Made by a program: the position numbers and the translations under genes | Part shown: positions 3,348 through 27,673 of the stretch, piece by piece | Layout: every line of letters begins with the position of its first letter | How positions within the stretch are numbered: the first letter of the stretch is position 1 | The notes under the pieces: generated by a model | What the model was told of the DNA's origin: nothing | Database searches by the model: none | The model's input: only the letters and a program-made list of their open reading frames with translations | Origin: a virus | Taxonomy: Duplodnaviria; Caudoviricetes | Virus record (IMG/VR): IMGVR_UViG_3300025099_000107 | Location: 1-27,752 of that record | Length of the DNA stretch: 27,752 bases | Direction: 5' to 3' (one strand)

Positions 3348-6300
3348 ATGCCAATAGTAAATACAAATTTTATTGCAGGTAAAATGAATAAGAGCGTTGA
3401 TGAACGCCTTGTTCCAAAAGGTCAATACATAAACGCTATTAATGTAAGATTAGGAGCAACAGAAACTACAGAAATAGGTGCTGTTGAAAACTCTAAAGGT
3501 AACTCACAGCTTACGACATTAGCTTATGGCGGCCAAAACCTTTCTAATTCTGCGCAATGTATAGGAGCTTATGAAGATGGATCTAAAGAAACTATATATT
3601 GGTTTGTTCATGATTCAAATAATCCAGTGGTTGGTGGTAAGTTAGACTTAATTGTATCTTTTAATATACAAACCGAAGCTATTACTTATCATGTTATAAC
3701 TAAAACGGTACTAAATTTTGATCCAAAATTTTTAATAACAGGTGTAGATAAGATAGAAGACTTATTGTTTTTTACTGATGATAAAAATCCTCCAAGAAAA
3801 ATAAACGTAACACAAAATTATCCGGATCCAGCAGGAATTGCAGATGGTATAACGGAAAGTGATATAAGTGTTGTTTTGAAACCACCAGGTTTTTCTTCGT
3901 TAGAAACATTGTCAGCCCCTAAAGTGACAATGATTGATGTGCCTGGTGAAGAAAACTACATGGACACAAGGTTCATAACTTTTGCATATAGATATAGGTA
4001 TATAAATAATGAGTATAGTGCAACCTCTTTATTTTCAAAAGCTGCATTTCAACCAGGGCCATTTGAATTTGATGTGAATAACTTCAATAATGGTTCGATG
4101 AAAAATATATATAACTCAGCTGAGGTTGAGTTTGAAACAGGTACTGATAAGGTTATTGAGGTAGATTTATTGTTTAAACCTAGTAATAGTAATTCTATTT
4201 ACGTTATAGAAAGGTTTAAAAAGTCAGATTACGGATGGGCTAGTAACACAAAACAAACATACACATTTACTAACAGTAAAATATATACAGTTTTAGGTGC
4301 AGATGAATTATTAAGACTATATGACAATGTCCCTAAGGTGGCTAAAGCACAAACTATACAAGGCAATAGATTAATATATGGAAACTATACTGATGGATAT
4401 GACATAGTAAATGCAGCTGGTCAAGATATAGCTGTTAATTTTACAACATCATTGTTTACCAACGACATATTATTTGAAGAATTAGATGAAGGGACAATGT
4501 CTACTGGCGTTGTTTATACTATAAATCCTAATACAACAACTACAGTACAAAATTCTAAAATTAGTTTTGACTTATCTAGCCAAGCTAATAAATTAAAGGC
4601 AGGAACGACTATTTCTTTTTTACTTACTATTGAGCATGGTGCTTTAAATGGTGACACTGGAGACACATGTTATGATGCGTCATTTAAAAACACTCCATTT
4701 GATTTAGAGGTTATATTCCCTATAAACCAAGATTACAGCTCGGTTTATGAAATGGTAAATTCAGCAGCTTTTGCAGAACGTATTGGAACAATATTGAATA
4801 CAAACTTTCAACCTTTAGCAACTTCAGCGAACGGAAATTCTTTAACTGATTTATTTAATACATTTACTACAGTACCAGTAAATTGTTCTTTTACAAAAAC
4901 AAATAGTAGTATTGATTCTCAAACACAACAAGGTTTTAGAATAGGTTCTACGGTAGGTTCCAATGTTTTCTCGCTTCAGGTAATAGCTATGAAATACACC
5001 TCAGGGACTACAAATGTTTATGAATACTTTAAATTTTCTAGAGGTACTGGAACTTTTTCTTCAAGTCAAGATACATCTTCATTGCATAGTAACAGAGATT
5101 ACGAAACAGGAATTGTATATATGGATGAGTATGGTAGGGCATCAACAGTATTAGTGTCGGAATTCAATACAACTTTTGTACCTCCATCTGCTTCAGTAGA
5201 TCAAAATAAAATAAAAGTTAATATAGAAAGTTTACCGCCAGCATGGGCAACAAAGTATAAATTTGTTTTGAAGCCTAGTGAAGGTGGATATGAAACAATC
5301 TATTCTAATTTTTATTATCAAAGTCAAAGCACTAGGGTTTTATATTTTAAACTAGAAGGTGATAATCAAAACAAAGTAGAAAAGGGAGATATATTGATTG
5401 TAAAAAGAGATGCTAACGGCCCACTCACAAGAGAGGTTACATGTCAGGTATTAGATGTTACAGCTGAATCATCAAACTTTTTAGAGGTAGAAGGTGAGGC
5501 TCCAGCACAATCAAATCAATTAGCTGGATTATATATGCAAATACGAGCGCAGAACTTTAGTATTAATCTTGATGAAGATGCTGTAATTGACGCTGGCGAG
5601 CTTACTTATTCTAGTAGAACAAGAAGCCAATGTGTTCCATATTTAGAGTATCCTGCTTTCACTACAGATTCAAACGGAAACACAACTAATTATTCAATAC
5701 CAGCGCAAACTAACATAAGAATAAAATGGAGGTTGCAAAGATTTGGTGGTGGCGGTTGTGATGGCGCTGAATATATATGGGATACTGATTATGTAGCTTC
5801 AAATGATTATGATGACTTACATGCGTGGTTTGTTGGTGATTTTATAAGCCCTGGAGCTGGAAAGATAATTGATGAAGGCCCTGGGCTACAAGAACCAACT
5901 TTTACTGGAACTATTGCTACAAGCGCATCAGGCATACCTTGCCCTGCTCCTTTTGAGCCAGTGTTTCAATTTGTTCAAGCTGTTCCAGGTGACGTAACTT
6001 CCCCCTTATATTTGGCTTGTAAAAGTGGAATGTATGCATGTGTTAGTCATAGCACCAATATGGAAGCTGAAATTATTGTAACTAGAGCTAATAATTTAAT
6101 TGTTTGGGAAACAGAACCAGCTGATGCAGATCCTAATTTATTTTATGACTCTTCTGAATCTTATGATATTACAGGAGGTTTTCATATGCGTGGAAATGGA
6201 GATGGAGATCAAAACCAAACAGCAAGTCAAGACGCTATTGTAACACTGCCATTTTTTAATTGTTACACATTTGGGAATGGTGTAGAAAGTTATAAGATAC

Positions 6301-8499: not shown

Positions 8500-9000
8500 A
8501 TGGCAACAAGAGCAACATATTACTTTGATGGATTCAGTTTTGCAACTGCAATAGCTTTGTTTACCGACCAGGCTTTAACAACTAAAGCTGCGGATGGGTA
8601 CTATTCTTTAGGTTCAATATCAAGAAGACAAGTAAATGGTTTTCTTCAAGGAGCAGCGAATTGTCCTTCGTGTGGAGACGCAATCTCATTGTGTTATGAT
8701 GTAACATCAGCAAGTGAAGTGTGTTGTGTGGGTTGTGGAACTACTTATACAAGTTTTACATCTACAATTATGGGAACTTTTGGAAGCGTTTGTGGTAACA
8801 CTACATTTGATCAAACCTTTTACCATAACGGCTCAGGAACAATACCAGCGATGGGTGAGCTAGTGTATCAAGATCAAGCTGGGACTACTCCATTACAAAA
8901 CGGATGGTATCACACTAATGCATCAGGCACAAGCACCAGATATAGAATAACTAATAATACTGGTTTTGTTGCAAGCATAGAACCTTGTGGAACTCCTTAA
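8500..9000 (+). CDS. Cys/Thr/Gly-rich repeat protein (2 modules), putative tail appendage or receptor-binding subunit, 166 aa
   Basis: Contains TYYFDG..F.TA..LFTD..LTT.A.DGYY and QTFYHNGSG..P..G modules and a LCYD...VCC.GC linker, all shared with neighbouring genes. Confidence 0.65.
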   Translation: MATRATYYFDGFSFATAIALFTDQALTTKAADGYYSLGSISRRQVNGFLQGAANCPSCGDAISLCYDVTSASEVCCVGCGTTYTSFTSTIMGTFGSVCGNTTFDQTFYHNGSGTIPAMGELVYQDQAGTTPLQNGWYHTNASGTSTRYRITNNTGFVASIEPCGTP

Positions 9001-9021
9001 TGATATAATAAATTTTTTTTG

Positions 9022-9029
9022 TAAATTTA
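9022..9029 (+). promoter_or_regulatory. Possible variant -7 promoter element (TAAATTTA)
   Basis: One mismatch to TAnnTTTG, preceded by a T run like the 1404 site, in the 50-nt gap before ATG 9051. Confidence 0.35.
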
Positions 9030-9050
9030 CAAGAATAAAATCAATACTTT

Positions 9051-10049
9051 ATGCCAACGCAAGGAACCTATTTTTTAAATAATACAGTTTGGGCTTCAGG
9101 AAACGCCAACTCTGCTACAAATATATATACAGAAGCAACGTTAACAACGGCTGCCCCAAATGGATGGTATAAAGACAATAACAATGTTTATAGAGAGGTA
9201 ACTGGAGGAAATGGTGCGCTAGGAACTTCATACTCATGTACTACATGTGGAGTTGAATTGAATTTAGGTTACGGAGCGTCAGCATTTGCAGCGTGTTGTT
9301 CTGGTACAACTGCCGATTTTTATGTACAAACTTCTTTTACGGCAACAACAAGTATTTATACAAATCCATTATTGAGTAGTTTTGCAGCTAATCAATTTTA
9401 TTCATATAGTTCTCAAAGTAGAGAAAAAACAAGTGATGCAACCGATGGTTCAGGATTAAGTTCAGCAGTATCATGTGCTACTTGTTTCCCAGCAGTAGGA
9501 TTAACATTTGGTAGTTCATCAGCAATAGCTTGTTGTACAGGTGCATCTGGTACATATTACATGAACCAAACAACTTTTGCAACTTCAACTATATTATATA
9601 GTACAGCTGACGGAACTACAGTGGCAAGTAATGGATTCTATTCATTTAACCCTGGTAACGGAGGAGCTATTGTTTATAGAGAAGTAACGGGAGGAACAGG
9701 AACTTTAGGAACACAAACTACATGTTCAGATTGTGCAACTTCAATTAGCTTATGTAAAGGAACAAGTGCAGATGATGTGTGTTGTACTGGATGTACAAGT
9801 TTAACATCGTTTACAGCTACAATAGGTGGTAACTTCCTTGGAGTATGTTCATTAACGCCAGGAACAACTTACTATCATAACGGAAGCGGAACTTATCCAG
9901 CAGCAGGTGATACGATGTTTACAAACTCAGCAGGTACAGCAGTAGCTGATCCAAAACATTATCACTATGTAGATGGAACAACAAATAAAAAGATTCATAT
10001 TACTGGAACTAACGGGTATGTAGCGGGAATAAGCAATTGTGCCCCATAA
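9051..10049 (+). CDS. Cys-rich repeat protein (4 modules), putative tail appendage, 332 aa
   Basis: Repeated ...ACC.G..TYY...F...T.IY....G.Y...RE.....CxxC units, ending in a YYHNGSGTYPAAGD module. Confidence 0.65.
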   Translation: MPTQGTYFLNNTVWASGNANSATNIYTEATLTTAAPNGWYKDNNNVYREVTGGNGALGTSYSCTTCGVELNLGYGASAFAACCSGTTADFYVQTSFTATTSIYTNPLLSSFAANQFYSYSSQSREKTSDATDGSGLSSAVSCATCFPAVGLTFGSSSAIACCTGASGTYYMNQTTFATSTILYSTADGTTVASNGFYSFNPGNGGAIVYREVTGGTGTLGTQTTCSDCATSISLCKGTSADDVCCTGCTSLTSFTATIGGNFLGVCSLTPGTTYYHNGSGTYPAAGDTMFTNSAGTAVADPKHYHYVDGTTNKKIHITGTNGYVAGISNCAP

Positions 10050-10063
10050 ATAAAATAAAATAA

Positions 10064-11029
10064 ATGCCCACGCAAGGAACCTACTTTTTAGATTCAACGT
10101 CCTTTGCAACCGCCACAGCCATATATACAGATGCGGCACTAACAACGGCGGCTACAAATGGCTGGTATAAAACATCTTCTAATACATTTAGACAGCAGAC
10201 AGGTGCACCTAACAATCCTGTATTAAGCTCTACGTTTACATGCGAGTGTACAACATTTAGTGCTTCTACCGCATACAGTTCAGCTCCGTCAGCTTGTTAT
10301 AATGGTGTGGTAAACCAGACTTATTTTCATAATGGTTCTGGTAGTACACCAGTGGCTACAGATGTATGTTATTCAGATGCAGGACAAACATTTTTAGGAA
10401 ATGGATTTTATAAAATATCAGCGACTCAATATATTTCAATTACTGGTGGCGCTGGTGTAGTGGCAAGTGTAGGAACGTTTGTTACAGGAACATCGTTTAG
10501 TAGTAGCACAGTTCAAACTAACTCTACTAACGCTTGTTCTGCTACTATAAACCAAACGTATTATCACGATGGCTCAAGCTCATTGCCAGTTGTAAACGAT
10601 GTGTGTTATGACAACTCATGTATGGCAACTGGAGGTGAAGGATCGCCACCAAATCTTTTAGCAAATGGATATTATAAAATATCCTCAACTGGCACAGGAA
10701 CTTATATGCAGATTTCAAGCAATACAGGTACGGTATCAGCTGTTACAAGTTGCCCATCTTCAACAACATCTTATAGTTCATCAATTGTAGGTGTATTCAA
10801 TTCAGTTTGTCCTTTTGACGGCTCGAACCCACCAGCTAATCAAACATATTATCATGACGGATCCGGAACACTTCCGTCCGCAGGTGACACATGTTATAGT
10901 GATTCAGCGGGAACTACAACTCTAGCTTCAGGTTATTATTATTTAACTGGAACTGGAAACAATAATAGAGAATACATTCAATTAGATAACAACGGTGAGG
11001 TATTATTTAGTTATCCGCAATTATGTTAA
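10064..11029 (+). CDS. Cys-rich repeat protein (4 modules), paralog of the preceding gene, 321 aa
   Basis: Starts with the identical MPTQGTYFL and has three NQTY[YF]H[DN]GS..P...D.CY.D...G[FY]Y modules. Confidence 0.65.
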   Translation: MPTQGTYFLDSTSFATATAIYTDAALTTAATNGWYKTSSNTFRQQTGAPNNPVLSSTFTCECTTFSASTAYSSAPSACYNGVVNQTYFHNGSGSTPVATDVCYSDAGQTFLGNGFYKISATQYISITGGAGVVASVGTFVTGTSFSSSTVQTNSTNACSATINQTYYHDGSSSLPVVNDVCYDNSCMATGGEGSPPNLLANGYYKISSTGTGTYMQISSNTGTVSAVTSCPSSTTSYSSSIVGVFNSVCPFDGSNPPANQTYYHDGSGTLPSAGDTCYSDSAGTTTLASGYYYLTGTGNNNREYIQLDNNGEVLFSYPQLC

Positions 11030-11040
11030 AATAAAAAGAT

Positions 11041-11796
11041 ATGGCTATAGAAACATTACAGACATTATCGTATAACAATGACAGCCAAGGCTGGCCGTCT
11101 TTCTATACTTACTATCCTGATTACATGATAGGAATGAACAGTTTCTTCTATTCTTTTAAAGGTGGTAATTTATATAGACACAATACAAACACCCTAAGAA
11201 ATAATTATTATGGTGTTCAAGGATCCTCTTCAATTACAGGAGTATTTAATCCTAAGCCAACTTTAGATATAAAGTTATTTAAGACGATGTCTTTAGAAAG
11301 TGACGCAAGCTGGACGGCTACAAATATTAAAACAGATCTTAATTCTGGATCTATGCTTAATACTTATTTTGAGCAAAAAGAAGGAGAGTGGTTTACATTT
11401 ATTAGAAGCAAGTCTGATACAGTAAACTGGAAGTTAAGATCAGCAAACGGACTAGGCTCGGCTACAATAGTTGCTGGCCCAGCAAACGCAACAGTTATAA
11501 CATTTACAGAACCTTTTGGAAGTATACTTAGTATAGGAGATGCGATCTATGCAAAGACCACGCCAGAGTTGGTAGGGTATGTTACAGCAATGAGTGGCAC
11601 TACGATCACTGTAGACGCATCCGCACAAGGGGCGTATATCCCTGTACAGGGTGACTTTATTTTATCTTATAAAAACAGCGTTGCTGAATCGCATGGTGTG
11701 CTAGGTTATTACATGGAGTTTACGTTAACTAACGACAATACAACGCCAGTTGAACTCTTCTCTGTAGGTAGTGACATCATGAAAAGTTATCCTTAG
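11041..11796 (+). CDS. Probable C-terminal part of the tail nozzle/stabilisation protein, encoded separately; 251 aa
   Basis: TLSY....GWPSFYTYYPDYMIGMNSFFYSFKGGNLYRHN...KLFKTMSLES...FEQKEGEWF...GYYMEFTLTN...ELFSV resembles the block that normally follows GGYDP..DEY within nozzle proteins. Confidence 0.6.
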   Translation: MAIETLQTLSYNNDSQGWPSFYTYYPDYMIGMNSFFYSFKGGNLYRHNTNTLRNNYYGVQGSSSITGVFNPKPTLDIKLFKTMSLESDASWTATNIKTDLNSGSMLNTYFEQKEGEWFTFIRSKSDTVNWKLRSANGLGSATIVAGPANATVITFTEPFGSILSIGDAIYAKTTPELVGYVTAMSGTTITVDASAQGAYIPVQGDFILSYKNSVAESHGVLGYYMEFTLTNDNTTPVELFSVGSDIMKSYP

Positions 11797-13273: not shown

Positions 13274-15211
13274 ATGGCTGATAGTAAAAATAAATACAGA
13301 GTATATGCAGGGATGGACGATTCCCCTCCAATTAATTGGGGAACAATTGCTAATACTATTAGTGGTCAATTACAAACTATAAAAAAAGAAAGGCAGGACG
13401 CTAGAGATGCTATAGATAAAGCAACATCTGATCAAATGGCTGAACTTAATAAGTTGCCAGATGTAAATAATAGATCTTTATCTAGAATATTAATTGAAGG
13501 AAGTGATCGTTCAAAAAAAGAATTGCAAATGCGTATGCAGTTATTAAAATCTGGAGCCATAAAACCAAAGGATTATGCTTTGTTTATGAACGAACAAAAA
13601 AATGGTTATGCTGAATTTTCTACAACAGTAAAGAATTACGATAAGTGGTATCAAAAAAAAATGGATGAGATTAAAGCAGGTGACGTATCCGCACTAGATG
13701 AAGCTAATGCTCTTTCAATCGAAGGTTTCGGTAATTTAAATGATAAAGTAATTATGACAAACCCTGCTAATGGACAACTACAGGTTGTTACAATGGGTTA
13801 TAATGAAAAAACAAAAAAGTACGATATAATGCCAAATGCAGAAGCTTCACCAGGAAGTTTTGCTGTCCCTGGATCACTGAATGCTCGTATGTCTTTTGAT
13901 GAAAAAAAGAAAAAAACTTCTGAACTTGTAAATAATGAAGTAAAATTTATAGGCGACGAAATTCTTGCTAGAAGCCGAGGCAATGGTGTTGTAGAAACAA
14001 TTGATGATTTCACACAATCTGATGCGTTTGAGCCTTGGAAAAACGCAACTATTGAGAAACTTACGAGTAACGACTATGATTCTACTCAAATATTAATGGA
14101 AGATTCAAGGTATGTAATAGCTTCAAGTATTGAAGAGGCTAGGAAAAAAACTGGTGACGACACCTTAAGTGAAGATTCACCGTTTTTTATTAAGATGGAT
14201 CAGTCGGGAGACAGACCGGTTCCTAAATTAACAGACGATCAACGAAAAGCTGCTAAAGAAATGGTAGATGTATCGATTGAATCACAAATAGGAAGAAAAG
14301 AAGAAAGAACAAGAGAGTTTGATAATCAAGACAGGATTGATAAAAATAAGAAAGAAACAGCTTCTAAGTCAGGAAGGGTTGATGCATTCAACAAAATATT
14401 TAATCCTGAAAGAAGTCAAGATGCTTTAAATACTATTGACACAGACAGCACTTATGACAATATTCAATCTATACAGATGGTAGATAAGGAGGGTAACAAT
14501 GTTGAAAAGGCTGATTATACAAAAGCAGAAAGTATAATGATACAATATTACGACCCTAAGAAAAAAGAAATGGTTGACGGAAAAATTAGAGTTAAAGATG
14601 AAAACGGAAAGGTAAAATCAGGTGAAGAGATTGTTATGGAGATGGTAATAAAATCTGGTATTGATGCTCAAGATTTAACAGCATACAAAGAGGCGTTTAA
14701 AAAGAAAGGTAATAAATTCAATGAATTTAAAGGTATAGAAAACTATCAAAGAAAAGCTAGTGTATTAAAAGAATCAGGGAATATTGAAGTGCCATTAGGT
14801 AAAAGTAGTTATCCTGCATCACAAGCAATAAGTAATGTGCTAAAAGAAGATTTCAAAGACGATGAAGGAGGGCTGGTTGCATTGCAAGAATTAACAAAAG
14901 CTAAGGAAGAAGAAAATGAAGCAAAAGAAAGTGAAGCTGATAAAAAGCTTGATCAATACAAATGGTCTCAAATTACTAACATGATAAACTCAGCGTTTAA
15001 ACCTAGGTTAAGAGGGAAAGCATTTGAATTTAATGTTGGATCAGACGGTAAGTTACAAGTTATATATCAATCAAAAGCAATTGATTTAGGAATTACCAAA
15101 GATGGAATAGGAAATGACGGAGCCAGATTAATTAATGTAATTGAAGCTAAAATTAATAATGCTAACAATCCCTCAAGCAATGATTCAGGTGGTATTAGTG
15201 GAATGGGTTAA
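13274..15211 (+). CDS. Putative internal virion (ejection) protein, 645 aa
   Basis: Charged, helical, Cys-free protein lying between the pilot-like gene and the giant gene. Confidence 0.55.
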   Translation: MADSKNKYRVYAGMDDSPPINWGTIANTISGQLQTIKKERQDARDAIDKATSDQMAELNKLPDVNNRSLSRILIEGSDRSKKELQMRMQLLKSGAIKPKDYALFMNEQKNGYAEFSTTVKNYDKWYQKKMDEIKAGDVSALDEANALSIEGFGNLNDKVIMTNPANGQLQVVTMGYNEKTKKYDIMPNAEASPGSFAVPGSLNARMSFDEKKKKTSELVNNEVKFIGDEILARSRGNGVVETIDDFTQSDAFEPWKNATIEKLTSNDYDSTQILMEDSRYVIASSIEEARKKTGDDTLSEDSPFFIKMDQSGDRPVPKLTDDQRKAAKEMVDVSIESQIGRKEERTREFDNQDRIDKNKKETASKSGRVDAFNKIFNPERSQDALNTIDTDSTYDNIQSIQMVDKEGNNVEKADYTKAESIMIQYYDPKKKEMVDGKIRVKDENGKVKSGEEIVMEMVIKSGIDAQDLTAYKEAFKKKGNKFNEFKGIENYQRKASVLKESGNIEVPLGKSSYPASQAISNVLKEDFKDDEGGLVALQELTKAKEEENEAKESEADKKLDQYKWSQITNMINSAFKPRLRGKAFEFNVGSDGKLQVIYQSKAIDLGITKDGIGNDGARLINVIEAKINNANNPSSNDSGGISGMG

Positions 15212-15221
15212 AAAATAAATA

Positions 15222-18200
15222 ATGAACGACGAAATATTACAAAATATTTGGAATCAACTTACGGCAGATGGAATGACCAATAGTGATTTTGAAACTTGGA
15301 AATCCAATTTTGCAGGGAGTGAAGATATACAAAAAAATGTTCATGGATATTTGCTTGAAAATAATCACACTGATAGTGATATTGATACTTGGAGCTCTAA
15401 TGTAGGGTTAAAAAAAAAAGACGAATCCGACTTATCTGTTCTGGAAAAGGATTTGGTGTTCGGTACGAACGAGGACGAACAAGATGGTTCTTCGGATGGT
15501 TCAGAAGTAACAGATGAAGAAATACCAGAAGTAGTACCTGAAGTTTTAGAGACTGAAATAGAGACTGAAACAGAGACTGAAACAGAGACTGAAACAGAAA
15601 CTGGAACCGAAAATGTAGTTGTAACAGAAGAAGAGAAAAAAACTACTGACGATAAAAAACAATTTTTAATTTCTCAAAACATAAATATCGATGCTTTGTT
15701 TAGACAGGCTCGATTTGGAAACCCTTCTACTGGACAAGGCGGTGATTTTACAGGCACTGAAGAAGAGTTTGTAGACAGATATTACGCTACTTACTTAGTA
15801 GATAAAGGTATTACTAAAACTCAAATAGATTTTGATTCTGCTATTTTAAAACCAAAAGAGGATAGAGAAGCAACAGAAGGATACGAAACTGATGTAGCTG
15901 AAACATTACTAGATAGAGTAAAGATAGATCCGACTGATTATAAAGCATGGGAAGAAGAGACTACGAGAGAAGAAAGTAAAGCTTTTAAGTGGGTAAAAAA
16001 TCTTTTGACTACAGATAAAACTGAAGCTTTCAATAAAGAGCAAAGAGATTTTGAAAAGATCGCTAGTTATAAAGCTTCAGTATTAGGTAAATTAAATGAT
16101 GATATTAATTTGCTCAACACCAAATTAGAACTAGCTAAAGATCCTACAGATATATTACAGCTACAAAACATAAAAGGCCAACTAGAAGCTAAGTACATAG
16201 AAGAACTACAACAGTTAAATGGATTAGCAAATTTATTTCCAACTTTAAAAAAGTATACTATAGATAGAGATCTAGAACGAAGAAAAAATATTTATGACGC
16301 TGCACATTCAGATGACAATGTTGGAGAAGTTACAAGTGAGGTAGGTAATGTATTAAAAACTATACCTGTGGCCTTAGGAGATTTTACAATGGGTAGTTTA
16401 GCGTTTATTACTTCAGGAGCTGATCAGGCTTTATCTGCTGTAGGGTTTGATCAAAAAGGTTTACTAGCTGGTTTAACAGAAAGGTTTTTGGATGGACAAG
16501 AAAGTTTTGAACAGTTTATAGATCCTGTACAGCGTAGTGGAATTATAGATGGTAAAGAGGTAACGGTAAATGGAAAAGAATACATAGTTACATACGATGG
16601 TTCAGTGTTAGACAGAAAGTCTCATGTTAAAATGAACGGAATCATATCTGATGATTTGATAAAAGAAGTGCAAGAGCGTTCAAAAAAAGTTTTAAATTCA
16701 GACACATTTTTTGATGGAGGGGGCGTAGTGTCTTCTGGTTTTACAACTATGGCTAATTTAATTGCACTAATTAGAGGGGGTAGAGGCTTGAGTAAAGTGT
16801 TGAAAGTTTCTCCAGGAGTTGGTATGGGGTTAGCATCTTACGGAAGTTCTATGGCTAGTGAAGTTGAAAGTATGAGAGCTGACTTGATGGCTGCGGGATT
16901 AACAGAGAAAGAAGCTATGGATAAAGCCATAATAGCTGGTAACGCGATTGCATCTTTAGACGGATTGTTTTCAGGTTTAGCTGGCGGGAATCAAAAAGTA
17001 TTATCAAATTTGGCAGGGTTTAAACAGCAGGTAATTAACATAGTAAAAAAAGATGGAGCTAAATTTAGTAAAGATGAGTTAAAAAGAAAGCTTAAAGATT
17101 TAGGAATAGAAATGGGTAGGGAAACTGTTATAGAAGAGCTTCCTGTTTTGTTTTCAACTAAAGCCGTAAACGCAGCTGTAAATTATAGTGTTGGCAGAGA
17201 AGTAAGAAGCGCAGAAGTGTCTCAGGCAGAAATTTTAGAAACAGTGATACTAACATTAGGTGCTACGGGTACATTAGGAGGTAAAACGTTAATAAATAAA
17301 AACACAAGACTTGATGCTTTAAGATACGTTGGTATGAATATAAACGATCTTCAAGGTACTATAGATCAGCTTGTAAAAAACGGAGAGATTACAGCACAAG
17401 AAGGACAAAATGTTTATCAAGAAGTTTATGATATGCAAGCGGCTGAATTAAAAACTAAAGGAACTATTACTAATAGTAATAACATGTTAGAGACCTCTGA
17501 TTTGTTACAACAAAGACAGCAATTAATATCTCAAAGAGAAGGTTTAGAGGGCCCTCTCAAAGAAGATTTAGATAAAAAAATAGAAGACGTTGATCAGCAA
17601 ATAAACGAAGTAGTTAACAGAGATAAAAAAGAAACTGAAGATAAACTTAAAACAGAAAAAGATTCTATTCAAGAAGAAATTACTGTAGCGGAAGCAGGTA
17701 AGAATGAAAAGGCAGATGGTTTTGATAAAGCTCCAGTTTATAAAACAGGAGGTAAACCTGTGTTATTTCATGGTTCAACTAAGAAGTTTACTGAATTTGA
17801 TATTGAAAAAATTGGATCTGGGGCTGATGCAGGGACAGCCAGAGGTATATTTTTTACTAGCGATCCTGAAGTAGCTTCATTTTTTTCTAAAGAAACAGGT
17901 AGTTTTAAAGGTAATGTAATACAAAGTATTAAATCATTAACAGGAAGGTCAGAATCTACTATATATTCAGGTGCGTTAAACACTGATAACATTAAGACTG
18001 TAGATTTTAATGGTCAGCGAACTAGCCCTGAGTTTGATAAAAACAAAACTATTCAAGAAGCTTTTGATCAAGGATTTGATGCGGTAATTTTAAAAAATAT
18101 TGTAGATGGTAATAATAAAGTTCAAGATGTTACTGTTGTAAAAGATATGAGTGTTATTGAAGAGTTCAAAGACACTCAATTGTCAGGAGATAAATTAATT

Positions 18201-21200
18201 AAAAAATATAACCAAGATGCCATTCAAAAGTCAAGCGCAAAGGCGGTGGATGATAAAAAATCTACCAGCCGTAGCAAAAAGGTGGAGTCGCCTGTACTCG
18301 ACTCCAAACTTACCGGAAAGAGTAAAGCCAAAACCGAAAACAAAACTAAAACGAAGACCCAAGAGGAAATAGATTCTTTAAATAAAAAGATAGAAGAAGT
18401 AAAAGTTGATTCTAAAATAAACAGACCAACAAAAGCTGCTCGAATAAAAGAATTAAACGATAAAATTTCTAAACTAAAGGCTCAAGCAGAAACAGAAACA
18501 AACATTGAAGAGGAAGTAGAGTTAACTGAAAACCAAGATTTAGATAGAGACAGTAGGTTAAAGGAGCAAGAAGTAAAAGAGGCGCAAAAGGAAGAAGGTT
18601 ATACTGTGGAAAAAGAAGGCTCTAGTATTGATATTGATATAGCCGGCAAAAAACGAACAATTCCGTTGCCATTTTCTAAAACAATTAACAATGCAAAAAG
18701 AACCTTAAAAAGATTATTTCAGTCAGCTGGTAATTTACCAAAAACTTTATTTAAAGCACAAGAATCTAAAAGAGGAGAATATAATCAAATAGTAGCTAGA
18801 GCTGAAAGAAAAGCTTCTGAATATAACAGGTTGTTTGATAAACTTAGAAAACAAAAAAATTTAGATGAAAACACTTTGATTAAATTGAATGAAGATTTAG
18901 GTAAAGTTTTAAAAGGAGAGTTGAAAATACAAGATATTAATTTTAAAAATAATAAAGGAGAAACAAAAGCTATTAGTTCTAGACTTGCTAAGTTGGTTAC
19001 AGAAATGAGATCTGATATTGATGCAATGTCACAACAAATATTAGAATCTCCAAACATAGCAAAAAAAGACGCTAAAAAAACAATAAAAAGTCAAATAGGT
19101 AAATACATAACCAGGTCTTATAGGTTGTTTGAAGGTAAAGTTAAAGGTAAAAAATTTAAAGAAACTTTAAGTGAAGATGTTTTAAATGAAGCTAGAGAAT
19201 TTTTTAAAAAAGATGAAGGTTTTATAAAAGAAGTTAAAACAGAATCTAAAAAAACTAATGAAAAATTTGAAGATGCCTTAAAGAGGATGACGGAAACAAA
19301 AATTAACGACTTATTAAATCAAAAAATTTCAAATACTGATTTTTTAAATAGGTATGTGGGGGACGGTAAAAACTTGAATATATTAAAAGAGAAAAAAGAA
19401 GTTCCGCCCGCTATAAGAAAATTATACGGAGAAATAACTGATCCAGTAGCTAATTATATTAACACTATGATTAAGACAGGTACTTTACTAACTCAGGCTA
19501 ACTTTGTTCAATCTGTATATGAAAATGGTATAGGTAAATATATATTTACAAAAAATGACCCAAATAGACCAAGTGATTCTGTAGAAATAGCTTCTCCAAA
19601 TAATGAGAATTATAAACCCCTAGATGGTTTGTATACATATCCTGACATAAGAGATGGTTTATTTCCAAGAAAAGGATTTTTATTTCAAAGGCCAGAAGGT
19701 AAAGCAGGTTATCTTTATGATTTGTATTTAAAAGTAATGATGGCGTACCCTAGAGCTGCTAAAACAATTCTTTCTCCTTCTACGCAAATTATAAACTTTG
19801 TTTCAAATGTTAATTTTGCTATTGTTAATGGTCATTTACCTGTATCAATTGTTAATGGAAGAGTAAATTTTGATGCATACAAAAAAGCTGTTCAAGGAAC
19901 TTCGGCTATTATAACAAGTAAAAGTAATAAAGAAATAGCAGATAAAATAGAAACTTATAATAAATTAGGGATTATAGATCAAAGTGTTGATGTTAATGAA
20001 TTAAAAGATTTACTAAATCAAAAAGACGGGGAAAAAGATTTATTGGAAAGGTTTTCTCAAGATCCTACTTACAGATCAAGATGGACTAAAAGTAAATTTA
20101 ATCCAAAAAATTGGTACAAGTTTGCAGAAAAATCGTATAGAGTTGGTGATGATTTCTGGAAAATAATGGGTTATGAAATGGAGTCACAAAACTTAGCTAA
20201 AGTTTATTTTAATAAAGACTTTGATGCTATGGTCAAAGAAAGTAATGTGCTAAAAGAAAAAGGAAAAAATGAGGATTCTAAGAAAAGACTTAAAGATTTA
20301 AATGAAGAAATAAAGCAAATACAAGAAGAGGCTGCCGAAATGGTAAAAAACCAATATCCTAATTATTCTCGTATTCCAAAACTAGCAAGATTTTTTAAAG
20401 GTTCACCGTTTTTAGGAAACTTTATATCTTTTCAAGCAGAATCATACAGAACCGCTTACAATACAGTTGCTAATTCTTTTAACATGCTAGCAAAGGGTAA
20501 TAAATTAATTAATGATAAAACTAATGTAGATAAAGGTAAAAGACTAAGAAAAGAAGGTCTTAGAAAAATTGCTAATACAATGTCATATATTGCTTTTAGA
20601 GACGGAGCTTTCTACGCTTTAGCTACTAAAGTAGGTGGAAAAGTTTTGGGAGGGTTCTTACCTTTATTTGGGTTAGGATTTGATGATGATGAACCTGAAG
20701 AAGAAGCGCAAACTTTTGGTCAGCTAACAGCTAAAGAACTCGCGATTAGAAATTTTGTTTATAAATGGCAAAAAAATCAAAAATTAATTATAACTAAGGC
20801 TGAAGATGGTCAATTAAATTTTGTAGATGCATCTACATTTGATCCTCATCAATTATTAGAAGCTAATATTAGCGCTTTAATGCAGTCTAAAAATTTTACT
20901 GATGCTTTGAAAGGCGTTACTGTTGAACAATTAGAAACCTTTGCTGGTATAGATTTTGTTTTACAAGCTGCATTAGATGCTAAAGCTAATTATGATCGAC
21001 AAGGAAAAAATAGAAGCATTATAAAAGACGCTTTGCAGCCATTTTTTAGAAGAGCTTTTTTACCAGGAGCCATCTTACAATTAGAAGACGCATTTGGAAA
21101 AGGTATATTGTCTGGTAGAGATTTAACAAAATCTAAAATTGCAAAATTGGTAGGTTATAGGGATTATGAGATTGATGTTTCTAGGCAGTTGTACTTCAAT

Positions 21201-21566
21201 CTACAGCCTGAAAGAGAAGCTCAAATGTTGTCAGAACAAAAATATTATAATGATGTAAGAAGTTTTATAAGAAAAAATCAGATTACGGAGGAGGGAGTTG
21301 CTGATCTAATTAAGTTGTATGAAAAAACAAACCAACAAAGAAAAGAAAGTTTTCTGTATACATACGAACAAATTAGAGCCGCTTTGCTTTTAGGAGTAGA
21401 ACCTGAAAAAATAGAAAGAACACTTAGGGGAAGAAAAATTAATTTTAGTAAAAAAGAAATTAATGCTATAGTCCAAGCGGCATATATTCCTTTAAAAGAA
21501 ATGCCGAGTGAATTTAGACCTGATAAAAAGAAAAAATCTCAAACTGAAAAAGATCTAGGCTTATGA
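15222..21566 (+). CDS. Giant internal virion / ejection polyvalent protein with an ADP-ribosyltransferase-like (ART-PolyVal-like) domain, 2114 aa
   Basis: Acidic N-terminal linker and a Gly/Ala-rich membrane-tropic segment (~16340-17300). ART-like block LFHGS..FTEFD...GIFFTSDPEVA..F...GFDAVILKNIVD at ~17750-18170. Long helical C-terminal region with a P.Y..IP..RFFKGSPFLGNFISFQAE motif. Confidence 0.75.
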   Translation: MNDEILQNIWNQLTADGMTNSDFETWKSNFAGSEDIQKNVHGYLLENNHTDSDIDTWSSNVGLKKKDESDLSVLEKDLVFGTNEDEQDGSSDGSEVTDEEIPEVVPEVLETEIETETETETETETETGTENVVVTEEEKKTTDDKKQFLISQNINIDALFRQARFGNPSTGQGGDFTGTEEEFVDRYYATYLVDKGITKTQIDFDSAILKPKEDREATEGYETDVAETLLDRVKIDPTDYKAWEEETTREESKAFKWVKNLLTTDKTEAFNKEQRDFEKIASYKASVLGKLNDDINLLNTKLELAKDPTDILQLQNIKGQLEAKYIEELQQLNGLANLFPTLKKYTIDRDLERRKNIYDAAHSDDNVGEVTSEVGNVLKTIPVALGDFTMGSLAFITSGADQALSAVGFDQKGLLAGLTERFLDGQESFEQFIDPVQRSGIIDGKEVTVNGKEYIVTYDGSVLDRKSHVKMNGIISDDLIKEVQERSKKVLNSDTFFDGGGVVSSGFTTMANLIALIRGGRGLSKVLKVSPGVGMGLASYGSSMASEVESMRADLMAAGLTEKEAMDKAIIAGNAIASLDGLFSGLAGGNQKVLSNLAGFKQQVINIVKKDGAKFSKDELKRKLKDLGIEMGRETVIEELPVLFSTKAVNAAVNYSVGREVRSAEVSQAEILETVILTLGATGTLGGKTLINKNTRLDALRYVGMNINDLQGTIDQLVKNGEITAQEGQNVYQEVYDMQAAELKTKGTITNSNNMLETSDLLQQRQQLISQREGLEGPLKEDLDKKIEDVDQQINEVVNRDKKETEDKLKTEKDSIQEEITVAEAGKNEKADGFDKAPVYKTGGKPVLFHGSTKKFTEFDIEKIGSGADAGTARGIFFTSDPEVASFFSKETGSFKGNVIQSIKSLTGRSESTIYSGALNTDNIKTVDFNGQRTSPEFDKNKTIQEAFDQGFDAVILKNIVDGNNKVQDVTVVKDMSVIEEFKDTQLSGDKLIKKYNQDAIQKSSAKAVDDKKSTSRSKKVESPVLDSKLTGKSKAKTENKTKTKTQEEIDSLNKKIEEVKVDSKINRPTKAARIKELNDKISKLKAQAETETNIEEEVELTENQDLDRDSRLKEQEVKEAQKEEGYTVEKEGSSIDIDIAGKKRTIPLPFSKTINNAKRTLKRLFQSAGNLPKTLFKAQESKRGEYNQIVARAERKASEYNRLFDKLRKQKNLDENTLIKLNEDLGKVLKGELKIQDINFKNNKGETKAISSRLAKLVTEMRSDIDAMSQQILESPNIAKKDAKKTIKSQIGKYITRSYRLFEGKVKGKKFKETLSEDVLNEAREFFKKDEGFIKEVKTESKKTNEKFEDALKRMTETKINDLLNQKISNTDFLNRYVGDGKNLNILKEKKEVPPAIRKLYGEITDPVANYINTMIKTGTLLTQANFVQSVYENGIGKYIFTKNDPNRPSDSVEIASPNNENYKPLDGLYTYPDIRDGLFPRKGFLFQRPEGKAGYLYDLYLKVMMAYPRAAKTILSPSTQIINFVSNVNFAIVNGHLPVSIVNGRVNFDAYKKAVQGTSAIITSKSNKEIADKIETYNKLGIIDQSVDVNELKDLLNQKDGEKDLLERFSQDPTYRSRWTKSKFNPKNWYKFAEKSYRVGDDFWKIMGYEMESQNLAKVYFNKDFDAMVKESNVLKEKGKNEDSKKRLKDLNEEIKQIQEEAAEMVKNQYPNYSRIPKLARFFKGSPFLGNFISFQAESYRTAYNTVANSFNMLAKGNKLINDKTNVDKGKRLRKEGLRKIANTMSYIAFRDGAFYALATKVGGKVLGGFLPLFGLGFDDDEPEEEAQTFGQLTAKELAIRNFVYKWQKNQKLIITKAEDGQLNFVDASTFDPHQLLEANISALMQSKNFTDALKGVTVEQLETFAGIDFVLQAALDAKANYDRQGKNRSIIKDALQPFFRRAFLPGAILQLEDAFGKGILSGRDLTKSKIAKLVGYRDYEIDVSRQLYFNLQPEREAQMLSEQKYYNDVRSFIRKNQITEEGVADLIKLYEKTNQQRKESFLYTYEQIRAALLLGVEPEKIERTLRGRKINFSKKEINAIVQAAYIPLKEMPSEFRPDKKKKSQTEKDLGL
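15549..15608 (+). repeat. 12-bp tandem repeat encoding (ET)n
   Basis: GAGACTGAAATA, 3x GAGACTGAAACA, then a degenerate GAAACTGGAACC. Confidence 0.9.
18217..18372 (+). CDS. Nested +1-frame small basic protein, 51 aa (MPFKSQAQRRWMIKNLPAVAKRWSRLYSTPNLPERVKPKPKTKLKRRPKRK)
   Basis: Runs ATG 18217 to TAG 18372 inside the giant gene. Leader TAAATTAATTAAAAAATATAACCAAG resembles other starts in the window. Host-frame third positions become anomalously GC-rich over this span. It resembles small MPFKS.AQRRW phage peptides I recall. Confidence 0.7.
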   Translation: MPFKSQAQRRWMIKNLPAVAKRWSRLYSTPNLPERVKPKPKTKLKRRPKRK

Positions 21567-27625: not shown

Positions 27626-27673
27626 AAAAAAAAAAAAAGAGGGATGGAAGTGCAATCTTAAACTTTCCCTCTT
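27626..27673 (-). terminator. Rho-independent terminator upstream of the primase gene
   Basis: Minus strand reads AAGAGGGA-AAGT-ttaagattgc-ACTT-cca-TCCCTCTT and runs into a T13 tract. Confidence 0.65.

Follow-up and report, generated by a model that had tools for sequence, protein, structure and literature searches.

A conserved ten-adenine run early in a giant phage gene as a probable recoding site for a 98-residue protein

Does a giant gene of a marine tailed phage encode one protein, or several that share a beginning? The gene lies on the 27,752-nt stretch of IMG/VR virus record IMGVR_UViG_3300025099_000107 (Duplodnaviria; Caudoviricetes; positions 1 to 27,752, hereafter the window), a record estimated to be 46% complete. 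Within its first 66 codons the gene carries a run of ten A (A10), at which an earlier, sequence-only reading of the window had proposed a shift out of the zero frame that yields a product of about 98 residues sharing the first 66 with the giant protein. Comparison with related loci gives this proposal strong support: judged from sequence, recoding at the run is almost certain, and a 98-residue protein is very likely made from the giant gene as well. The elements concerned, in window coordinates, are as follows.

15222..21566, + strand: giant gene, an open reading frame (ORF) for 2114 amino acids (aa), the third and largest putative cargo (ejection) gene.
15222..15419, + strand: shared N-terminal domain (N-domain), 66 codons ending in GLKKK, from AlphaFold2 and protein homologues.
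15410..15419, + strand: candidate A10 slip site, from the sequence.
15419..15517, + strand: basic, aromatic tail in the −1 frame (32 aa, then TGA), read from the sequence and predicted to be a three-stranded beta-meander.
15452..15496, + strand: −1-frame motif F-G-V-R-Y ... W-F-F-G, from the alignment.
15421..15510, + strand: basic, aliphatic tail in the +1 frame (29 aa, then TAA), stop-free in A-run relatives up to WFFG.

The bases at the site are exactly as first described. The run occupies 15410-15419, where codons 63-66 read TTA AAA AAA AAA before GAC, and it includes an in-frame A_AAA_AAA heptamer. After it, 12 of 19 codons end in G or C, compared with a gene-wide third-position G/C fraction (GC3) of 0.185; the sole other 12/19 GC3 stretch in the giant gene is at codon 1015, within the nested gene described below. 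The −1 frame is open for 32 residues (10 K/R, 7 F/W/Y) to the TGA at 15515-15517, and the zero frame across the same 32 codons is acidic (12 D/E), opposite in charge to the −1 tail, while the +1 frame is open for 29 residues to the TAA at 15508-15510. With the window's zero-frame protein held fixed, none of 500 synonymous resamples left 32 codons of the −1 frame free of stops. Lys is preferentially encoded by AAA; of the 10 KKK triplets counted across 20 window ORFs, the one at the A10 site is the sole pure-AAA case. DNA contigs of runs X5 and X8 cross A10 with no indel at this position. Further along, the acidic linker contains a short E-T repeat (~15550-15600) with a 12-base length variant in run X5. 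Two other long A tracts occur in the window, an A9 at 13653-13661 inside the upstream 645-aa gene and an A13 at 27626-27638, outside the listed ORFs and near the window end.

We investigated the conservation of the run in 104 loci (68 clusters at 60% identity) that were chosen without regard to run or tail; only the counts from this set are independent of tail selection. The loci were obtained through the window N-domain (30 loci), the N-domain of Cellulophaga phage phi18:3 (12 loci, after L125-L127 were dropped as duplicates of cultured phages) and the nested gene 3 kb downstream (62 loci, after 18 of 80 were dropped, 15 with a short host ORF or a stand-alone gene and 3 with the start outside the locus). 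A run of at least nine A was present within codons 30-110 in 97 of the 104 loci, uninterrupted by AAG codons. At the cluster level, 62 of 68 had a run of 9-13 A (54 of length 10, five of 11, two of 9 and one of 13), and the remaining six comprised two with G_GGA_AAG and four with neither signal. Elsewhere in the same ORFs, runs of at least nine A occurred once in 257,619 nt, and KKK was pure AAA in 0 of 58 cases, though AAA makes up 75% of Lys codons; such runs are therefore avoided everywhere except at this site. The run occupies three codon phases (e.g., L-K-K-K-D and E-K-K-N), all of which include an in-frame A_AAA_AAN, and keeps a length of about 10 throughout, behind N-domains that are highly divergent among loci. 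Close protein homologues had G[LI]KKK[DE] in 45 of 45 cases, and the cultured phages phi38:1, Calle_1, elemoA_7-9A and Gundel_1 carry an in-frame A10. On these comparative grounds, the run, its length and its position are shown to be under selection across distant Bacteroidota phages. Prophage relatives amounted to one fragment in the searched genome contigs.

The N-domain of phi13:2 (L119:4119-4280) is unlike that of phi18:3 and resembles that of Gundel_1 (L140:6975-7135), with the same run and downstream bases, which suggests that N-domains are swapped at the run. Unrelated N-regions are found in other relatives, for example short acidic-aromatic repeats in phi38:1, L190 and L205.

Behind the run, the −1 frame was open for at least 15 codons in 61 of the 62 run-bearing unselected clusters (12.7 expected from synonymous resampling), and a [YF]G..W[FI][FI]G-type motif was found in 39 of the 62 (0.2 expected), so that both the open frame and the WFFG-type motif noticed in the window are conserved in homologues. 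The family form of the motif is [YF]-G-[IFV]-x(n)-W-[FI]-[FIL]-G, with variable spacing between its halves, and it was absent from the +1 frames (0/68). Between close pairs, substitutions at zero-frame positions 1/2/3 numbered 28/54/52 in the tail and 26/10/93 in the N-domain; the loci behind the tail counts were partly picked by a tail pattern that fixes some codons and leaves one position-2 base free, and up to 27 of the position-2 changes could stem from this selection. Recurrent ACG/ATG and TCG/TTG changes alter the zero-frame residue and keep the −1 residue. A DNA pattern restricted to the tail returned 74 loci; among the matches listed, the sites lay 49-124 codons into a long ORF and 49 loci had A9-10 upstream of the tail. 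This pattern of constraint strongly indicates that the −1-frame peptide is selected as a protein.

AlphaFold2 predicted four helices for the N-domain, arranged as two helix-pair repeats (pLDDT 79.6), and four helices plus a three-stranded beta-meander for the 98-aa product (pLDDT 77, pTM 0.48), with strands at residues 67-74, 77-84 and 87-95. A profile search with the tail recovered 8 proteins of 78-106 aa that end in it (P0047-P0054), of which P0047 is exactly the predicted 98-aa product and has gene calls on 2 ENA contigs; as singleton clusters they may be assembly errors, and they served for folding only. The product resembles little in the databases searched: PHROGs held no family for the N-domain or the 98-aa product at E < 0.1, a PDB sequence search with the 98-aa product gave a best E of 0.12, and the ESM Atlas a best score of 0.83 with no Pfam family. 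Foldseek against PDB found no fold match for the N-domain, and BFVD returned a single match, 55% identical across 74 columns, to an unnamed protein of 686 aa.

The same tail also appears to be reached without a long run. Among 51 tail-selected clusters, 32 had A9 or longer, 10 G_GGA_AAG, 4 A_AAA_AAG, 3 G_GGA_AAC/T, 1 A7 and 1 none of these, so that a heptamer (G_GGA_AAN or A_AAA_AAG) stands in place of the run in 17 of the 51; the last cluster, together with two metagenome loci, has A_AAG followed by a hairpin. G_GGA_AAG was absent from 7123 downstream codons. Heptamer sites (n = 13) showed a hairpin starting about 6 nt 3' (mean z −1.5 to −2.6 in four windows), whereas folding downstream of A-run sites (n = 68) was like that of controls (mean z −0.3 to −0.5), and upstream structure was found in neither class (mean z −0.2 and −0.3); these structure tests were made without a pseudoknot-aware program. 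Bacterial ribosomes are known to shift to the −1 frame at G_GGA_AAG, A_AAA_AAG and A_AAG (PMC5009743), and the heptamer-type sites are likely, from their sequences, to be sites of ribosomal −1 frameshifting. In L112-L114 the N-domain is 55-60% identical to that of the window, yet G_GGA_AAG is used, which indicates that the signal has been exchanged within one lineage. Since one −1 tail is reached through either run or heptamer, it seems to be the product that matters, and the mechanism to be exchangeable. A second pattern gave 21 loci: 11 with A9-10 (at least two of them from contigs already in earlier sets), all with the +1 frame open through the motif; 6 with G_GGA_AA[GC], of which 4 have +1 stops, with hairpin z of −1.3 to −3.3; and 4 chance matches, which were dropped.

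The sequence-only reading had also drawn two pairings after the run in the window, the first of which forms this stem:

15422..15455, + strand: proposed stem, which pairs at chance level and is no general trait of A-run sites in the family.

Both pairings can indeed be drawn (7/7 and 9/9 pairs), but they were no better than those of shuffled sequences (z +0.28, −0.31 and −0.27), and the second is broken once in L085 and mostly lost in L089. The idea of a stimulatory hairpin or pseudoknot thus found no folding signal, either in the window or at the 68 A-run sites.

The third frame separates the two classes of site. At A-run sites, no +1 stop occurred in 590 codons outside the motif cores before WFFG, where 36.9 were expected given an open −1 frame; beyond WFFG, +1 stops returned to the chance rate (12 vs 12.6). 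Heptamer sites had 20 +1 stops in 358 codons (29.2 expected). In V/I/L codons before GA/GG, third-base A and C are synonymous in the 0 and −1 frames and A makes a +1 TAG; the ratio of stop-making A to C was 0:9 at A-runs and 6:0 at heptamer sites, with a background of 493:58. These stop and A:C counts leave out 11 of the 68 A-run sites, in which the motif was not located. Past the −1 stop, the +1 frame ended at the chance rate (10.5 vs 11.7 extra codons). Read most simply, these sequences mean that ribosomes pass into the +1 frame at A-run sites alone, which is what gain as well as loss of As would produce. A stop-free third frame may distinguish two-directional slippage from one-directional ribosomal shifting.

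As to mechanism, the sequences incline us, with moderate confidence, to slippage of the host RNA polymerase on A10. The 9-10 bp RNA:DNA hybrid would realign on the run; one extra A would lead to the 98-aa product with its basic-aromatic beta-meander tail, and one lost A or two extra As to a product of about 95 aa with a basic-aliphatic tail. One gene would in this way give the 2114-aa giant protein and short proteins sharing its first 66 residues, and in other lineages the ribosome would shift frame on G_GGA_AAN, A_AAA_AAG or A_AAG, with a hairpin some 6 nt further 3'. Two-directional polymerase slippage is favoured by the lack of a hairpin, the near absence of A7-8 and the avoidance of +1 stops at A-runs. 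RNA polymerase slippage is efficient from nine As (PMC5009743), a threshold that fits the finding that A7 suffices in only 1 of 51 tail-selected clusters. It also works without a stimulatory structure. Additionally, phi38:1, which carries an A10 site, encodes no RNA polymerase of its own (PMC5335546). Slippage in Thermus has been linked to the presence of a second lysine tRNA (PMC5009743), and it is possible, by analogy, that this explanation applies here too: a tRNA-Lys(CTT) pattern was present in 27 of 61 genomes of one Bacteroidota order, with ARAGORN confirming 2 of 3 loci (the other one lies where its contig ends), while the tRNA-Lys TTT pattern was insensitive, matching 2 of 61 genomes.

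The strongest competitor, to which we give clearly less weight, holds that the mRNA is faithful and that the ribosome shifts on A10, by tandem A_AAA_AAA slippage or by AAA sliding, to make the same short products. Relatives including L112-L114 do reach the same tail with unmistakably ribosomal signals, every A-run phase seen retains an in-frame A_AAA_AAN, and ribosomes slide into several frames on iterated AAA (PMC4363877). Nevertheless, A_AAA_AAA is a weaker shifter than A_AAA_AAG in Escherichia coli (PMC5009743), A-run sites have no stimulator, and sliding is slow relative to elongation (PMC4363877). Moreover, A7-A8 would already supply the heptamer, and yet it occurs so rarely among the tail-selected clusters.

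We consider it unlikely that the run is a DNA contingency tract, in which replication slippage would create A9 or A11 genomes with the giant protein off or the short forms on (phase variation). A metagenome contig near-identical to the window (L226) has A9 and the giant gene out of frame, P0047 is called as a gene, and four Cellulophaga Pachyviridae records have A9 and the gene split in two. Conversely, viral contigs hold the giant frame intact at run lengths of 9-13, the singleton status of P0047-P0054 is what homopolymer assembly errors would give, and the A9 of L226 and the singleton in-frame proteins are indistinguishable from such errors. Heptamer-plus-hairpin sites, moreover, cannot act at the DNA level, and Gundel_1 (Pachyviridae; Illumina per PMC8776804) has an in-frame A10, so the A9 Cellulophaga records may be sequencing errors. 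In these records, phi18:3 (L115:13310-19440), phi19:3 (L117:12056-17991), phi46:3 (L118:4116-8758) and phi13:2 (L119:4119-10366), the N-domain and the giant gene are separate. Their A9 is either a homopolymer error or a sign that the giant protein itself needs recoding there. The 2013 Cellulophaga genomes were reportedly obtained on a homopolymer-prone sequencing platform. phi18:3 gp122 was tried as a stand-alone −1 product and rejected; it reads a +1-type tail since the record has A9. Least credible is the absence of any recoding, with KKK conserved as protein, or the run as a DNA or RNA element, and the open frames as by-products: the invariant G[LI]KKK[DE] of the 45 close homologues and the preference for AAA would suit it, but E-K-K-N and G-K variants retain the nucleotide signal and lose the peptide, KKK elsewhere is never pure AAA, the recurrent ACG/ATG and TCG/TTG changes preserve the −1 residue, and the spacing of the motif halves varies.

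Several points weigh against recoding of this kind, or against polymerase slippage as its cause. The loci are related, so that p-values are overstated, and loci picked by the tail pattern enter the codon-phase and KKK, +1-stop, A:C-ratio and substitution counts. L073, L131, L135, L138 and phage BKO1-TP3 have neither run nor motif, and in L086-L088 (~5190-5340) A10 is kept with a −1 frame of only 7 residues. Exceptions in the +1 frame are L035, with a stop after one codon, and L021, L089 and L182, with 13-15 codons. A conserved +1 protein sequence was unsupported (18 of 134 substitutions synonymous). No contig of RNA run X20 lies over the site, a result that covers contigs only, from one RNA source and a small share. 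Finally, ribosome sliding on iterated AAA predicts the same sequence signatures as polymerase slippage. Separately, we note that in L086-L088 the +1 frame runs 46 codons behind the A10.

The setting of the gene points to virion proteins. The source phage is putatively podovirus-like and of a Bacteroidota-infecting type: its muzzle-like gene matches 87 phage records, 86 of which are Flavobacterium, Cellulophaga, Tenacibaculum and Maribacter phages. On the + strand, three putative cargo genes (312, 645 and 2114 aa) come after ring-like, muzzle-like and fibre-like genes, and in crAss001 ring and muzzle genes likewise precede cargo genes (PMC10172136); from this likeness in gene order we infer that the giant protein may be ejected cargo.

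11041-11796, + strand: muzzle-like gene, Pfam crAss_MUZ_C.
17754..18137, + strand: ART-PolyVal domain (ADP-ribosyltransferase of polyvalent proteins), aa 845-972 of the giant protein, Pfam PF18760 (E 4.8e-09, 37.5 bits vs a cut-off of 31.2).
18217..18372, + strand: nested gene of 51 codons with its own ATG, starting MPFKSQAQRRW, in the +1 frame of the giant gene.

Residues 1285-1656 of the giant protein match phrog_22602 (virion structural protein), and residues 1287-1749 are 25% identical to Cellulophaga phi18:3 gp123, which is annotated as a virion protein by tandem mass spectrometry (MS/MS). In this 46%-complete window, the giant protein matched no RNA polymerase family in Pfam or PHROGs, and no tape-measure or tail-chaperone family was among the window's matches to these databases. 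A promoter and terminator scan of the window was at chance level (33 vs 39.9 and 3 vs 4.4). Upstream, at 8500-11029, three neighbouring Ser/Thr/Cys-rich genes with internal QTYYHxG-like repeats resemble the C-terminus of the muzzle-like gene, and two of them match phrog_21885, of unknown function.

The nested gene encodes a strongly basic product (18 K/R, 1 D/E) and starts where the zero frame reads DAIQ. Its homologues lie inside an ORF of more than 300 codons at 69 of 80 loci, while about ten, most of the rest, stand alone; in phage 023Pt_psg01 the homologue is annotated as a stand-alone gene. It was found within 5 kb in 13 of the 30 loci with the window-type N-domain. In the ESM Atlas its product scored 0.95 to unnamed viral clusters and only 0.84 to DUF3008. 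Flavobacterium phage elemoA_7-9A has two nested MPFKS starts (L121:25108 and 25504), one truncated after 10 codons and one intact, and in L017, L065 and L070 the MPFKS gene is nested about 45 codons into a different, shorter host ORF.

What the short protein does can be suggested only tentatively. By analogy with lambda gpG/gpGT, the 98-aa protein could be an adaptor produced in constant proportion to the giant protein. Through the N-domain that the two have in common it would target the same site as the giant protein does, and with its cationic aromatic sheet it would attach to a membrane or to a part of the virion while cargo is loaded or ejected. That phi18:3 gp122, which holds the N-domain, has no mass spectrometry note, whereas gp123 has one, speaks against a virion location. 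A fuller scheme, which we regard as speculative, is a three-way switch in which A10 slippage gives two short isoforms, one with a beta-meander tail and the other with a basic amphipathic one, beside the giant cargo, making four proteins per coding sequence with the nested gene, and in which the family wires the tail to polymerase or ribosome according to host tRNA-Lys(CUU). If recoding at the run is real, current annotations overlook a small conserved protein in a broad set of Bacteroidota phages from aquatic habitats, among them cultured members of Pervagoviridae, Pachyviridae and Elemovirus, and the splitting of the giant gene in several GenBank records may be a mistake. For recoding research the family would be a natural experiment, with one product, two exchangeable mechanisms and many independent lineages, and the tRNA-Lys explanation proposed for dnaX would therefore become testable at large scale. 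For phi38:1, in which the site belongs to gene 101, infection RNA-seq (SRP066570, SOLiD reads; PMC5335546) and virocell and virion spectra (PXD066074; PMC13288928) are public.

We found no published report of this recoding site in the literature covered (titles and abstract openings, and few subscription papers). The word "frameshift" occurs 0 times in PMC8776804, PMC10172136, PMC13288928 and PMC5335546; PMC8008677 uses it for a reverse transcriptase. The 300,000 of 449,034 characters of PMC5009743 drawn on here contain no mention of Flavobacter-, Cellulophaga or podovir-.

Among known systems, dnaX (tau/gamma) is close: in Thermus thermophilus RNA polymerase slips on a run of 9 bases, and in E. 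coli the ribosome shifts to −1 at A_AAA_AAG (PMC5009743). As proposed for the present family, one gene gives a long zero-frame and a short recoded product, through a homopolymer run or a heptamer. In Thermus, nearby stops truncate both other frames (PMC5009743), whereas here neither closes for about 30 codons, and the conserved tail encoded in the −1 frame is predicted to fold. The gene considered here, unlike dnaX, codes for a putative virion protein of a phage, and its short product would have less than 5% of the length of the long one.

In phage lambda, the shift site of the tail assembly chaperone gpG/gpGT is G_GGA_AAG, the heptamer found here in relatives that have no A-run. Lambda likewise concerns a phage morphogenesis gene, whose products share an N-terminal part to which the shift adds a trans-frame binding part (PMC5009743). 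The differences are that the gene here is the last putative cargo gene of short-tailed phages rather than one between the major tail and tape-measure genes, that the long product is the unshifted one, and that the window site is an A10 without a hairpin, at codon 66 of 2114. The Shigella genes spa13, spa33, mxiA and mxiE are comparable in that slippage occurs early in the gene (after 58 codons in spa13) and sets the ratio of two forms of a secretion-machine component; they are bacterial type III secretion genes, however, and the description available includes no conserved tail open in three frames (PMC5009743). The order of ring, muzzle and then cargo genes is shared with crAss001 cargo and the T7/P22 ejection proteins (PMC10172136). 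Crassviruses have a virion RNA polymerase among their cargo, unlike the giant protein here with its lack of an RNA polymerase domain match. Lastly, editing of paramyxovirus P/V/W opens three frames behind a shared N-terminus by polymerase slippage (PMC5009743), as proposed for the A10 site; there, an animal RNA virus inserts G with its own polymerase, whereas here a DNA phage would probably rely on that of its host.

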